This document shows, in pieces, positions 1 through 4,729 of a stretch of 38,784 bases of DNA (its first letter is position 1; every line of letters begins with the position of its first letter). The stretch lies in NCBI GenBank assembly GCA_964545825.1, contig CAZJGX010000001.1, positions 1 through 38,784 of the forward strand. Direction: 5' to 3'. Both the position numbers and the translations under genes were made by a program. The notes beneath the pieces were generated by a model that was not told where the DNA came from, made no database searches, and worked only from the letters and a program-made list of their open reading frames with translations. The DNA is from an uncultured Muribaculaceae bacterium. Its GTDB lineage: Bacteria > Pseudomonadota > Alphaproteobacteria > Rs-D84.

Positions 1-1322
1 ATGTATTGGATGAACCGTCAATTGGGCTGCATCAAAGTGATAATGATAAATTGTTAGATACACTGAAAATGTTGCGTGATAAAGATAATACAGTTATCGT
101 TGTTGAACATGACGAAGATGCAATGTTGGCGGCGGATTACTTGGTTGATATTGGTCGTGGCGCGGGTGTAAATGGTGGTAATATCGTGGCACATGGTACA
201 CCACAACAGGTTATAAAAAACAAAGATTCTTTGACGGGACAATATCTGTCTGGAAAGCGTAAAATAGATGTTCCAAAGGTTCGGCGCAGTGGTAATGGAA
301 AAACAATTTCTGTTCATGGGGCGCGTGAAAATAATCTTAAAAATGTGGATGTTGAATTTCCGCTGGGTAAATTTATTGCGCTGACTGGTGTGTCTGGGTC
401 TGGTAAATCCACATTATTGTTAGATACGCTGTATCCTGCATTAATGCGTGCGTTATATAATTCAAAATTGGAAACCGGTGCGCACGATATTATTCGCGGT
501 ATGGAAAACGTAGACAAGGTTGTTGATATCGATCAATCACCAATTGGTCGTACGCCGCGCAGTAATCCCGCAACATATACAGGTGTGTTTTCCAATATAC
601 GTGATTTCTTTGCCGGATTGCCAGAGGCTAAGGCGCGTGGGTACGGGCCTGGGCGATTCTCGTTCAATGTCAAGGGCGGCCGGTGCGAGGCATGTCAGGG
701 TGATGGCCAGATAAAGATAGAAATGAATTTCTTGGCAGATGTATATGTTGAGTGCGATAAATGTCACGGTGCACGCTATAACGAAGAAACTTTGGCGGTA
801 AAGTATAAAGGCAAATCAATTGCGGATGTCTTGAATATGACTGTGGACGAGGCGTATCGTTTCTTTGTTAATGTACCACAAATTTCGCGTAAATTAGAAT
901 TGCTGAAACGTGTTGGTTTGGATTATATCAAACTGGGGCAAAGTTCATTGGAATTATCCGGTGGCGAGGCTCAGCGTATCAAATTGTCAAAAGAATTAGC
1001 CGCACGCAGTACCGGTCAGACCATATACATATTGGATGAACCCACAACAGGGTTGCATTTTGAAGATATAAAGATGTTATTGGGTGTTTTGCACGAATTG
1101 GTAGAACAGGGCAATACCGTTATCGTGATTGAACATAATCTGGATGTGATAAAGACCGCGGATTGGATTATTGACCTGGGGCCACACGGTGGTGCCGGCG
1201 GTGGTCAGATTGTGGCAACCGGTACACCGGAACAGGTTGCCGTGTGTGAAGACTCTTTGACAGGTCTGTACTTAAAAAAGTATCTGGACAAATCGTCAGG
1301 AAAAAAAGTAAAATCTAAATAA
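1..1322 (+). CDS. uvrA: excinuclease ABC subunit UvrA, C-terminal part (5' end outside window; reading frame starts at nt 3)
   Basis: LDEPSIGLH signature, second ABC ATPase with Walker [10 protein letters not shown], zinc-finger [32 protein letters not shown]. Confidence 0.95.
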
Positions 1323-1336
1323 AAGGAGTTTTGATA

Positions 1337-1858
1337 ATGTTTGGTTTTGGCAAGAAAAAAGAATCTGCAAAAATTGATGACGCGTCGATTGATGGTATTT
1401 CCGAAGAAAAAATCCCCAGCGGTATGAAGGAAACTGCCGCCCGCATGATGAGTGGTCAGTTTGACTTGAACGACATGTTGGCACAGTTAAAACAAATTAA
1501 GAAAATGAGTAATTTCAGCGGATTGTTGAAAATGGTGCCGGGCATGTCTGGTGCGGTATCCGCGATGAAGGAAAAAATCAAAGATGGCAGTGTCGATGCC
1601 CAAATTAAAATATTAGAGGCGATGACCCCTGCCGAACGCAGTGCACCAGACAAGATTTTTGCCAATGCAAAAACACGTATTGCCGAAAGTGCTGGTTGTA
1701 CTGTGCGTGATGTTGAACATATTATAAAACAATATACAAAAATGAAACAGCAGATGGCAATGATACAACGCATGGGCGGGATGGAGGCTGTTATGCAACG
1801 CATGCAGCAGGGTGGTGCCCAGCCTGGTAATTTTGGCCCAAAGCCTGCGGCAGCATAA
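1337..1858 (+). CDS. stand-alone SRP54/Ffh M-domain protein (no N or G domain)
   Basis: AAGGAG RBS at 1322-1327, 9 nt before the ATG at 1337. FDLNDMLAQLKQIKKM..LLKMVPGM..ILEAMTPAER..RIAESAGCTVRDV..KQYTKMKQQM, with a Met-rich tail, matches the Ffh M domain from the G-M linker onward. Confidence 0.8.
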   Translation: MFGFGKKKESAKIDDASIDGISEEKIPSGMKETAARMMSGQFDLNDMLAQLKQIKKMSNFSGLLKMVPGMSGAVSAMKEKIKDGSVDAQIKILEAMTPAERSAPDKIFANAKTRIAESAGCTVRDVEHIIKQYTKMKQQMAMIQRMGGMEAVMQRMQQGGAQPGNFGPKPAAA

Positions 1859-1872
1859 TAACGGGATAATAT

Positions 1873-2175
1873 ATGAAAATAAAATGGTCTAAGATTTTTG
1901 ATTGGTCTGTGACAGGTATCCAGGCGCCGTATATGTTGGCTGGGACGGCTGACGTGTTGGACGCGTATTGTGTAGAAGTTTTTTATCGCCACCATGGCCA
2001 GCGCAGATATTCGTTTCCGGTGACGCGTGACAGGGCATTGATTTCTGGACGTGAATTGGCACGTCAACGTGCGATGACGTTTTATAACAAAATGCGTCGT
2101 AAAATGCGGATTGGGTTGGGCTATGTACCAACGGTGATAAAAATTGTAACGCAAAGTCAAAATAGGGGATTGTAA
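1873..2175 (+). CDS. small hypothetical protein, paralogue A of a tandem pair
   Basis: 100-aa ORF. Shares FDWSV, Y.HHG, FP and A..F..KMR+ motifs with the next ORF. Its stop overlaps the next ATG (TAATG). Confidence 0.55.
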   Translation: MKIKWSKIFDWSVTGIQAPYMLAGTADVLDAYCVEVFYRHHGQRRYSFPVTRDRALISGRELARQRAMTFYNKMRRKMRIGLGYVPTVIKIVTQSQNRGL

Positions 2176-2432
2176 TGTTTTTTGGATGGACGCATTGGTT
2201 TGATTGGTCGGTTGCGTCTGTCAGTGAACCTGTTGAATTTTATCATCACGGTAATCGATTGCGGGTTGTTGCGTATCAGGTTGTGGTTCAGTATAACTAT
2301 CATGGTACGCGTACGGTGTTTTTTCCGATTGGTGATTATGGGCTGTTTGTTTCCTCTAATCATCAGGCATACACACAGGCAATGCAGTTTTGTGATAAAA
2401 TGCGCAAAAGGATTTTGCAAAAACAACGGTAG
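2175..2432 (+). CDS. small hypothetical protein, paralogue B of a tandem pair
   Basis: 85-aa ORF paralogous to 1873-2175, translationally coupled to it. Confidence 0.55.
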   Translation: MFFGWTHWFDWSVASVSEPVEFYHHGNRLRVVAYQVVVQYNYHGTRTVFFPIGDYGLFVSSNHQAYTQAMQFCDKMRKRILQKQR

Positions 2433-2530: not shown

Positions 2531-3193
2531 ATGAAAATACTTAATAAAAAAATTGCGGCAAAAAAATCGTCTGTTGCATGGATTCAACGCCAGGCAAATG
2601 ACCCTTATGTTGCGCGGGCGCACAAAGATGGATATCGTGCGCGGGCGGCATATAAACTGATTGAAATGAACGAAAAATTTCGTTTCTTGAAAAATGGCCA
2701 GGTTGTGGTTGATTTGGGTGCGGCGCCGGGATCGTGGACGCAATACGTTATGCGTGAATTTCCGCGCAGCAAAGTTTTTGCAATGGATTTATTGGAAATA
2801 ACACCGATTCCAGGGGTTGAATTTTATCAGGGTGATTTTACAACAGATGCCGCATTGGATTGGCTGGTTCAGAAATTAAATTTGCCGGCGGACGCCGCAG
2901 AACATGGAACAGTTGATGTTGTTATGTCTGATATGGCGCCAAATACTGTGGGGCATAAAAAGACAGATCATATACGTCAGATGGTATTGTTGGAATATGC
3001 TTTTGATTTCGCATTGCGTGCATTAAAGCCGGGTGGGACATTTGTTGCAAAATCTTTTACCGGCGGCACGACAAACGAATTATTAAAACAAATCAAAGAA
3101 AAATTTGAATCTGTACATCATATGAAACCGCCGGCCTCGCGCAAGGATAGCGTAGAAATGTTTATTGTTGCGACCGGATTCAAAGGCAAATAA
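2531..3193 (+). CDS. rlmE: 23S rRNA (uridine2552-2'-O)-methyltransferase RlmE/FtsJ
   Basis: SSVAWIQRQANDPYV..A.KDGYRARAAYKL, SAM motif DLGAAPGSWTQY, DVVMSDMAPN. Confidence 0.9.
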   Translation: MKILNKKIAAKKSSVAWIQRQANDPYVARAHKDGYRARAAYKLIEMNEKFRFLKNGQVVVDLGAAPGSWTQYVMREFPRSKVFAMDLLEITPIPGVEFYQGDFTTDAALDWLVQKLNLPADAAEHGTVDVVMSDMAPNTVGHKKTDHIRQMVLLEYAFDFALRALKPGGTFVAKSFTGGTTNELLKQIKEKFESVHHMKPPASRKDSVEMFIVATGFKGK

Positions 3194-3993: not shown

Positions 3994-4410
3994 ATGAAAA
4001 AAATATTGATTCCCGGCATTTTTATAACATGTATTGGTGTTGCCAGTGCGGCAACTGTAAAGTGTATTGCATTTAATACACAAACGGCATGCACTTATGA
4101 TAATCCTGGTGATTATGTAGATTTTACAGCCTATTGTGGTGGTATCACGGTCAGGGGGCTTGGCTATTGTTCAGAACAAAGTGGCAGCAGTGTCGGGTCT
4201 ACGACAATGGATTTGGAAAAGTCAAAAGGTATATATTGTTGGTGTCGTATGGTTTCGCCTGCATTATCCAATTGGGTATATTTGGAAAGTGCCATGGATA
4301 GTAGTCAGTGTGTGCATACGTGCAGCATAGATTGTGCGATTGCGTTGAATGATAGCAGGACGAAGGGTTCCAGTATGCGTCAAGGTATGTTTAATTCTGC
4401 CATTTATTAA
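3994..4410 (+). CDS. secreted cysteine-rich protein (138 aa)
   Basis: Signal peptide MKKILIPGIFITCIGVASA. Many Cys in the mature part. Preceded by leader copy 1 and an AGGAG RBS. Confidence 0.7.
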   Translation: MKKILIPGIFITCIGVASAATVKCIAFNTQTACTYDNPGDYVDFTAYCGGITVRGLGYCSEQSGSSVGSTTMDLEKSKGIYCWCRMVSPALSNWVYLESAMDSSQCVHTCSIDCAIALNDSRTKGSSMRQGMFNSAIY

Positions 4411-4423
4411 ATAGGATTGTGAA

Positions 4424-4729
4424 ATGAGGCAAATAAAGAAAATATTAGTTGTGTTGATTTGTCATTTGATGGTGTATGGTGCGTATGCCGCCACACCGTC
4501 AACCCAATGTCCATCCGGATATGTGACAATTGTTGAACCGTATACGATAATAGGATATCCGTATTGTGAATCTGTTGGCTCAATTATCCCAACGGAAATT
4601 GAACGTATAACAACGTGTTTGACTGATTCACCAGAAGCGGTTTGTACAATGTTTGTGCCGCGTGGTACGAAATATCAGGATGAAAGTGGTGAATACCAAT
4701 ATTCTGAACCATGTGCATTGGAACCATAG
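4424..4729 (+). CDS. secreted cysteine-rich protein (101 aa), second gene of the bicistron
   Basis: Signal peptide ..LICHLMVYGAYA, AGGA RBS, starts 13 nt after the preceding stop, terminator follows. Confidence 0.65.
   Translation: MRQIKKILVVLICHLMVYGAYAATPSTQCPSGYVTIVEPYTIIGYPYCESVGSIIPTEIERITTCLTDSPEAVCTMFVPRGTKYQDESGEYQYSEPCALEP

Follow-up and report, generated by a model that had tools for sequence, protein, structure and literature searches.

The signal recognition particle (SRP) system, i.e. Ffh, SRP RNA and FtsY, is counted among the few cellular machines that are conserved universally, and it is retained in many endosymbiont genomes far smaller than those of Candidatus Enterousia, the bacterium considered here. 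An Ffh derivative reduced to its M domain is known from mitochondria, where mL105/MAP67, devoid of the N and G (NG) domains, is located at the tunnel exit of the mitoribosome and contacts the Oxa1 insertase (PMC7326499, PMC9576764), its C-terminal helix entering the ribosomal tunnel like that of Ffh (PMC7326499), and it has been proposed to stem from the mitochondrial Ffh (mtFfh) by deletion of the N and G domains (PMC8321541). In plastid and mitochondrial SRPs, M domains have mutated RNA-binding motifs where the RNA gene ffs has been lost (PMC8321541). The isolated M domain of Escherichia coli Ffh co-migrates with 50S subunits and exerts, independently of FtsY, a selective effect on the synthesis of membrane proteins (Yosef et al. 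2010, PMC2921155). Among extremely reduced insect endosymbionts, Carsonella and Portiera have lost ffh and ftsY in the course of genome reduction, as implied in PMC4122945, and Evansia still keeps both genes in a strongly reduced genome that is much smaller than that of Enterousia. Here we analyze a gene that encodes an Ffh M domain without N or G domain (hereafter the M-only gene), located within the window, i.e. the whole stretch of 38,784 nucleotides analyzed (positions 1 to 38,784 of contig CAZJGX010000001.1, assembly GCA_964545825.1).

Candidatus Enterousia has been placed in the order and family Rs-D84 of the Alphaproteobacteria, with genomes of less than 1 Mb that come from the gut of farm animals; the SRP is unmentioned in the source paper, and a search of a paper library found no publication that describes an M-only Ffh in bacteria or the loss of SRP GTPases from Enterousia. 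The assembly with the window comprises 943 kb in 124 contigs and is 89% complete. The family survey covered 251 Rs-D84 genomes, 208 of them from Enterousia, 13 from genera g12, g17, g19, g20, g24, g26 and g27, and the rest from ten other genera. All of them are metagenome-assembled genomes (MAGs); the absences reported below mean that a feature was not found in the genomes searched.

A stand-alone Ffh M domain encoded downstream of uvrA

The open reading frame (ORF) starts with an ATG at position 1337, 14 nt past the uvrA stop codon (1320-1322), and ends with a TAA at 1856-1858 on the plus strand. The initial annotation, made from the sequence alone, had described it as a stand-alone M domain with no NG portion encoded upstream, and both statements were confirmed. 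In a Pfam search, residues 41-140 of the product matched the whole 91-position SRP_SPB profile (PF02978) with 83.8 bits (cut-off, 27 bits), and no N (PF02881) or G (PF00448) domain was found in the protein. In a phmmer search against the Protein Data Bank (PDB), residues 42-149 aligned with the M domain of E. coli Ffh (5aka, 1dul) with an E value of about 1e-14. The NCBIfam model TIGR00959 (ffh) yielded only 87.9 bits, over model positions 314-427, versus a cut-off of 473.2 and the 524 bits of a full-length Ffh of the same family. Five features that define membership in Ffh/SRP54 (TIGR00959) are lacking in the M-only protein, which is nevertheless an Ffh orthologue by descent. An AlphaFold2 model predicted a helical core (predicted local distance difference test, pLDDT, of 70-88) flanked by disordered residues 1-27 (pLDDT <50) and 159-170, and the best PDB matches of this model in Foldseek were all SRP54/Ffh M domains.

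A strong ribosome binding site of its own, AAGGAG, had also been noted for the gene, and it is indeed present directly after the uvrA stop. Because the gap behind this stop codon is too short to hold a separate promoter, the M-only gene is probably co-transcribed with uvrA. A promoter scan gave 9 matches versus 6.6 +/- 2.7 expected from shuffled sequence, i.e. the background level.

The M-only gene is an ffh gene truncated in place

In the genera that bear SRP GTPases the gene order is uvrA, a small ORF (...PTDGGAY...), ffh (446 aa) and rlmE (loci L114, L115 and L117-L119). The GTPase-less genus g19 shows uvrA, the same small ORF, the M-only gene and rlmE, and Enterousia shows uvrA, the M-only gene and rlmE, with small ORFs between the last two. 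A survey of the gene downstream of uvrA in relatives, as the initial annotation had proposed, thus found either the full ffh or the M-only gene at the same locus, with uvrA upstream in all related loci. Since a full ffh occupies the same uvrA-rlmE slot in the sister genera, the M-only gene is an ffh orthologue whose N- and G-coding part was deleted in place, and neither a paralogue nor a translocated fragment. The nearest full-length relatives of its product are the Ffh M domains of the same family, with 46-48% identity.

SRP GTPases and SRP RNA were not found in the M-only clade

In the genome that contains the window, the M-only ORF was the only PF02978 match, no PF00448 match reached the cut-off and no PF02881 match was observed at E<=10. 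Six weak PF00448 matches considered as cryptic NG or FtsY proteins turned out to be Der/EngA, an MsbA-like ABC transporter, ClpB, HolB, an ABC ATPase and DnaX, and they were rejected. PF00448 was found in none of the 208 Enterousia genomes and in none of the 13 genomes of the other seven GTPase-less genera, and it was present in all ten remaining genera of the family as an Ffh of about 446 aa and an FtsY of about 295 aa, with a few genomes showing only one of the two. PF02978 was detected within a short ORF (about 150-200 aa in Enterousia) in 205 of the 208 and in 12 of the 13 genomes, respectively, and within Ffh in the ten GTPase-bearing genera. When Ffh-NG and FtsY proteins of the same family were used as queries, nothing was recovered from five genomes, two of them single-contig (best E value, 0.03). 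The genome search for a full-length ffh or an NG-only ORF that had been suggested therefore found neither, and a split ffh with its NG half elsewhere is excluded, no GTPase of the NG or FtsY type being found in this genome and 220 related ones, single-contig assemblies included.

The SRP RNA showed the same distribution. The Rfam model RF00169 gave no match in the 25 Enterousia genomes searched, that of the window included, nor at E<=10 in five high-quality genomes. The Rfam SRP model was weak even in some sister genera. A covariance model (R1) built from 13 SRP RNAs of the order detected an SRP RNA in 15 of 16 genomes of sister families and in 26 of 29 genomes of the GTPase-bearing genera of the family, whereas the 25 Enterousia genomes mentioned above and 13 GTPase-less genomes outside Enterousia gave no match. 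Over 107 Enterousia genomes the lone match (E value 0.054, 20.5 bits) was at chance level. One of the 13 sequences behind R1 (G041:C3) is probably a false SRP RNA, the true one being G041:C28, and the groups were still cleanly separated.

The losses of Ffh-NG, FtsY and SRP RNA coincide exactly on the tree. Assembly gaps as the cause of these absences are untenable because the genomes are many and of high quality, and the GTPase-less sample includes one 100%-complete assembly of 5 contigs and two single-contig assemblies. Taken together, these results make us highly confident of the evolutionary account, i.e. an in-place truncation of ffh with loss of the SRP GTPases and of the SRP RNA in this clade.

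A separate observation concerns genus g21 (G051), where Ffh (570-aa frame, C28:17542-18666) and FtsY (391-aa frame, C12:12564-13424) each match PF00448 in two pieces, which suggests insertions inside both G domains.

The RNA-binding signature is degenerate and the protein is under purifying selection

All the motifs quoted in the initial annotation are present in the protein; the region assigned there to the SRP-RNA-binding helix, RIAESAGCTVRDV, is degenerate, however, and its RNA-binding motif is not intact. The signature reads S-R-K/R-x-R-I-A-K/R-G-S/A-G in 16 sister Ffh proteins (SRKRRIAAGSG in E. coli) versus N-A-K-A/T-R-I-A-E-x-A/S-G in 89 M-only proteins, in which Ala stands for the conserved Arg and Glu for the basic residue that follows RIA, and the first Gly has disappeared. 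Other features of the M domain were maintained. The Met-rich composition persists (16 Met within the 135-residue core). Also kept are the C-terminal Met-rich helix, the MTxxER motif and the PGM finger loop, the last of which varies less in the M-only clade than in ordinary Ffh.

Selection was estimated by the Nei-Gojobori method over 600 random pairs from a sample of 90 orthologues of 158-178 aa and a further one whose start is probably mis-called. For the core (residues 26-155), pN was 0.069 and pS 0.705, i.e. an omega of about 0.04 with synonymous sites near saturation, and the orthologue alignment is near-invariant from PSGMKETAxRMMSG via the finger loop to the Met-rich C-terminal helix. 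Residues 1-8 showed a median pN of 0 with a pS of 0.55; the following linker, of about 10-35 residues, gave an omega of about 0.94, and the C-terminal tail one of about 0.37. The argument that the intact frame and the ribosome binding site speak against simple decay is thus supported (dN/dS of about 0.04).

In a maximum-likelihood tree, the M-only sequences formed one clade (100/99) with a stem of about 1.2 substitutions per site and very short internal branches. In a relative-rate control with the flanking genes, the median identity between M-only and GTPase-bearing genera was 82% for the uvrA C terminus, 75% for rlmE and 46% for the M core; the corresponding values were 86.5, 77 and 81% among M-only genera, and 86, 76 and 73% among GTPase-bearing genera. 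Many replacements thus accumulated rapidly when the losses took place, and the constraint afterwards was at least as strong as before, a pattern that marks a re-tuned functional protein and not a decaying one. The suggestion of a gene remnant holds in that the gene is a truncated ffh at the ancestral uvrA-ffh-rlmE locus, but it does not hold as to decay, since this is a selected functional gene.

The N-terminal octapeptide

The sequence MFGFGKKK at the N terminus is identical in 75 of the 90 orthologues and reads MFGFGRKK in 8 more, and no second occurrence of the motif was found in the genome containing the window. In a MAFFT alignment, MFGFG was placed opposite ILGMG, the motif at the end of the G domain of full-length Ffh, and the sister Ffh proteins start with MFD/E.L; MFGFG may derive from the former or, alternatively, from the latter. 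Its derivation from a transplanted FtsY membrane-targeting sequence was rejected, as the sister FtsY proteins start with MG(I/L)FSK(I/F)S and the likeness is too loose to indicate homology. Placed on a disordered linker that evolves neutrally, the octapeptide looks like a tethering element. It might, as a speculation, be a novel docking peptide, for either membrane or ribosome, that replaces the lost docking by the N domain and FtsY, and a likeness to the uL23-binding signature of trigger factor (GFRxGxxP), which the trigger factor of this genome keeps as GFRPGHIP, is equally speculative.

Protein export machinery and ribosomal tunnel exit

SecY, SecA, trigger factor and SecB are present in closed or near-closed Enterousia genomes; in the incomplete assembly containing the window the first three were found and SecB was not. 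This assembly also contains a second, partial SecY (219 bits, at a contig end; G000:C76:3-809) besides the complete one (G000:C100:597-1622), which is probably due to strain heterogeneity or contamination (estimated at 3.5%) rather than to a true duplicate. A crude hydropathy count gave about 55 ORFs with at least 4 transmembrane (TM)-like segments in the genome, and therefore polytopic membrane proteins still need insertion. Sec-dependent export is evidently still heavily used despite the absence of the SRP, because small Cys-rich proteins with N-terminal signal peptides are encoded at 3994-4410 and 4424-4729 of the window (plus strand).

Two candidate compensations for the lost SRP were considered. 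YidC is present as a single copy, and a YidC2/Oxa1-like C-tail that binds the ribosome was rejected, as the Enterousia YidC ends right behind its last TM segment. Extensions of ribosomal proteins at the exit site found no support either: uL23, uL22, uL29 and uL24 lack clade-specific extensions and have equal lengths in the M-only genera g1 and g19 and in the GTPase-bearing genera g14, g15 and g25.

Proposed function and alternative explanations

These data show the following history. An ancestor of Enterousia and about seven neighbouring Rs-D84 genera lost the N and G domains of Ffh, FtsY and the SRP RNA together. The M domain then changed fast, losing among other things its RNA-binding signature and gaining or fixing MFGFGKKK on a flexible linker, and purifying selection has since held the M-only protein almost constant, with SecYEG, SecA, SecB, YidC and trigger factor retained. 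As to function, the Met-rich groove of the protein would still bind the hydrophobic stretches of nascent chains, i.e. signal or TM segments, with neither RNA nor a GTPase cycle. The protein might sit at the ribosomal tunnel exit like mL105, or be a soluble holdase from which SecA, YidC or SecY receive clients, and its invariant N-terminal peptide might replace the docking by the N domain and FtsY by binding the anionic membrane or the ribosome.

On the whole, the M-only protein is probably a GTPase-free and RNA-free binder of hydrophobic nascent segments, a reading that we prefer with some reserve. As to where such a binder would act, a ribosome-proximal role is plausible because there are two precedents, the isolated E. 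coli M domain and mL105/MAP67, and the C-terminal helix may, by analogy with that of Ffh and mL105, enter the ribosomal tunnel; a role as soluble holdase fits the data equally well. The more specific proposal of a one-protein co-translational targeting device, in which the M domain would capture TM or signal segments at the exit and MFGFGKKK, on its flexible acidic linker, would serve as a tether to the translocon or the anionic membrane or else restore docking at uL23, is put forward only tentatively. Several points weigh against the function as a binder of nascent segments. Ffh docks on the ribosome mainly through its N domain, at uL23/uL29, and this domain has been lost, no compensating extension being found in uL23, uL29, uL24, uL22 or the YidC C-tail; the specificity of the groove may differ, given the 46% identity of the M core to Ffh M domains; the structure model is only moderate (mean pLDDT 65.5); and every genome is a MAG.

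The most serious alternative is that the M-only protein has been kept for a function unconnected with signal or TM binding, for example through a new protein partner or as a general translation regulator on the 50S subunit, its homology to the Ffh M domain then being one of descent only. The long stem branch with its many fixed replacements would suit such a change, as would the loss of both the RNA and the N-domain ribosome dock, and the finger loop, invariant unlike that of ordinary Ffh, suggests a new specific contact; moreover, the effect of the E. coli M domain on its own is to slow down the synthesis of membrane proteins and not to target them (PMC2921155). Nevertheless, the composition of the Met-rich groove and the C-terminal Met-rich helix were kept, and mL105, the only other known M domain without NG, is still found at the tunnel exit facing an insertase, so that we consider this alternative rather unlikely, though worth retaining.

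The remaining explanations have far less in their favor. An SRP that is split or hidden, with NG, FtsY and SRP RNA unassembled or too divergent, could be argued from the fact that the genome containing the window is an 89%-complete MAG of 124 contigs and from the weakness of the Rfam model in some sister genera. It is very improbable, however, in view of the 0 out of 221 genomes, the complete and single-contig assemblies among them, of the profile, protein and custom covariance-model searches that were negative here and successful in sister genera, and of the RNA-binding motif lost from the M domain. That the gene is a non-functional ffh remnant on its way to deletion would agree with its origin by truncation in a lineage undergoing genome reduction, but we regard it as extremely improbable: the core evolves at a dN/dS of about 0.04 with near-saturated synonymous sites, 217 of 221 genomes have the frame intact, the gene in the window has a strong ribosome binding site, homologues of 165-181 aa form 890 clusters, and conservation among M-only genera is at least equal to that of rlmE. 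A last explanation, taken up from the initial annotation, is an extra M-domain paralogue that competes for 4.5S RNA or signal peptides, namely with a normal full-length Ffh. Nothing but the domain identity speaks for it, and its probability is practically nil, as the gene is the sole PF02978 match of the genome and occupies the ffh locus itself, and neither a full-length ffh nor an SRP RNA was found in the clade, the competition for 4.5S RNA being excluded also by the lost RNA-binding motif.

Features of the locus and of its neighbourhood

Table 1. Coordinates of the M-only gene, its parts and its neighbours in the window
Feature	Position	Strand	Basis and remarks
uvrA, 3' part	3..1322	+	ORF list, ABC_tran and related matches; extends beyond window start
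Shine-Dalgarno sequence AAGGAG	1323..1328	+	Sequence; 8 nt ahead of ATG, directly behind uvrA stop
M-only ffh derivative (173 aa), truncated ffh orthologue	1337..1858 (including stop)	+	Domains, PDB match, locus
N-terminal octapeptide MFGFGKKK, aromatic and basic	1337..1360	+	Invariance at the protein level
Variable acidic/polar disordered linker, residues 9-25	1361..1411	+	Omega about 0.94, length variation, pLDDT <50
IPSGMKETAARMMSG, a highly conserved remnant of the G-M linker helix of Ffh	1412..1456	+	Alignment with sister Ffh; predicted helix 28-39
SRP_SPB (M) domain: Met-rich groove, finger loop MSNFSGLLKMVPGMSGAVSAMKEKIKDGSVD near-invariant in the clade	1457..1756	+	PF02978 positions 1-91
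Degenerate SRP-RNA-binding signature NAKTRIAESAG	1664..1696	+	Consensus of 89 M-only proteins versus 16 full-length Ffh
C-terminal Met/Gln-rich helix and tail (KQQMAMIQRMGGMEAVMQRMQ...)	1757..1855	+	Conservation
Small paralogous ORFs in tandem, of 100 and 85 aa, upstream of rlmE	1873..2432	+	No family match; operon context
rlmE (FtsJ-type 23S rRNA methyltransferase), conserved downstream neighbour	2531..3193	+	PF01728, 202 bits; synteny

The two small ORFs downstream of the M-only gene (1873-2175 and 2175-2432, plus strand) overlap by TAATG, have no Pfam match and have in common W..FDWSV and, at the C terminus, the basic motif KMR+K. Another Enterousia locus (L127) also has small ORFs of this type, and so does the neighbourhood of a full-length ffh (L116). 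They were considered as partners specific to the M-only protein and rejected, since the g19 loci do not contain them and L116 has a similar ORF next to its full ffh. Further downstream, the first 20 nt of rlmE (ATGAAAATACTTAATAAAAA) are present twice, at 2438-2457 and 2531-2550, i.e. 93 nt apart, around a GC-rich palindromic segment, which looks like a small insertion with target duplication.

A conserved ORF of about 200 aa with an apparent signal peptide and the end ...VEPTDGGAY.HF.T.F was observed in loci L114, L115, L119, L121 and L126; this PTDGGAY ORF lies between uvrA and ffh or the M-only gene in GTPase-bearing genera and g19, and it is missing from the Enterousia slot. In the GTPase-bearing locus L116 (G085:C8, genus g15), ffh (about 1213-2529) carries one in-frame TAG between its N-terminal 168 aa and the remaining 296 aa, which could be a sequencing error or an ffh starting to break up.

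Comparison with known systems

The interest of this clade lies in that a species-rich group of gut bacteria (more than 200 species-level genomes) has kept the full Sec/YidC translocon and discarded the GTPase cycle and the RNA, the cargo-binding domain alone being retained, and it bears on the minimal needs of co-translational membrane-protein biogenesis and on what an M domain can do alone. A practical consequence concerns ffh and ftsY as universal markers, because completeness estimates and marker-based phylogenies of the clade are affected by their absence. For other lineages, a representative-library search gave many short matches (120-250 aa), which are indistinguishable from truncated gene calls without contig context.

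When compared with bacterial Ffh (PF02881, PF00448 and PF02978), the M-only protein shares the locus, the full M-profile match, the Met-rich groove, the PGM loop, the MTxxER motif and the C-terminal Met-rich helix, but it lacks the N and G domains, the FtsY partner and the SRP RNA, its RNA-binding signature is degenerate, and it has the new conserved MFGFGKKK followed by a disordered linker. The isolated M-domain fragment of E. coli has the same domain boundaries; it is, however, an artificial over-expression construct that still binds 4.5S RNA and whose effect is inhibitory, and does not represent a natural, sole-surviving function. Carsonella and Portiera have much smaller genomes, have lost most of the Sec machinery and keep no M domain, in contrast to Enterousia with its genome of about 0.9 Mb and intact SecYEG, SecA, SecB, YidC and trigger factor. 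The RNA-less organellar SRPs, i.e. the cpSRP54 of seed plants and the mtFfh of Naegleria and others, likewise combine RNA loss with mutated RNA-binding motifs, but they keep the NG GTPase and the FtsY receptor, neither of which was found in the M-only clade.

The closest likeness is that to MAP67/mL105, in both cases an NG-less and RNA-less Ffh M domain being kept as a stand-alone protein in a system of alphaproteobacterial descent, and chain 6z1p_AT of the Tetrahymena mitoribosome (6Z1P) was among the Foldseek matches of the M-only model, although weakly (rank 20, TM-score about 0.48, E value 0.069). The origin of the M-only protein is independent of that of MAP67, because its clade arises inside Rs-D84, next to genera with a full Ffh at the same locus. 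Moreover, MAP67 coexisted with mtFfh in some lineages, whereas the M-only protein is all that remains of the SRP in Enterousia, and the binding of mL105 to the ribosome has been shown, whereas that of the Enterousia protein, which belongs to a bacterium in which SecYEG is still present, is putative. Extensions of uL24 and uL29 like those that hold mL105 in Polytomella were not found in the M-only genera. The deletion of N and G domains proposed for the transition from mitochondrial Ffh to mL105/MAP67 is thus documented in an alphaproteobacterium whose sister lineages, still intact, allow a comparison, and, if the M-only protein were indeed a targeting device, Enterousia would offer a living alphaproteobacterial re-run of the step that gave rise to mL105/MAP67 when mitochondria gave up the SRP. 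Judged by its sequence and locus, the M-only protein appears to be a bacterial, independently evolved counterpart of the mitochondrial M-only derivative of Ffh.

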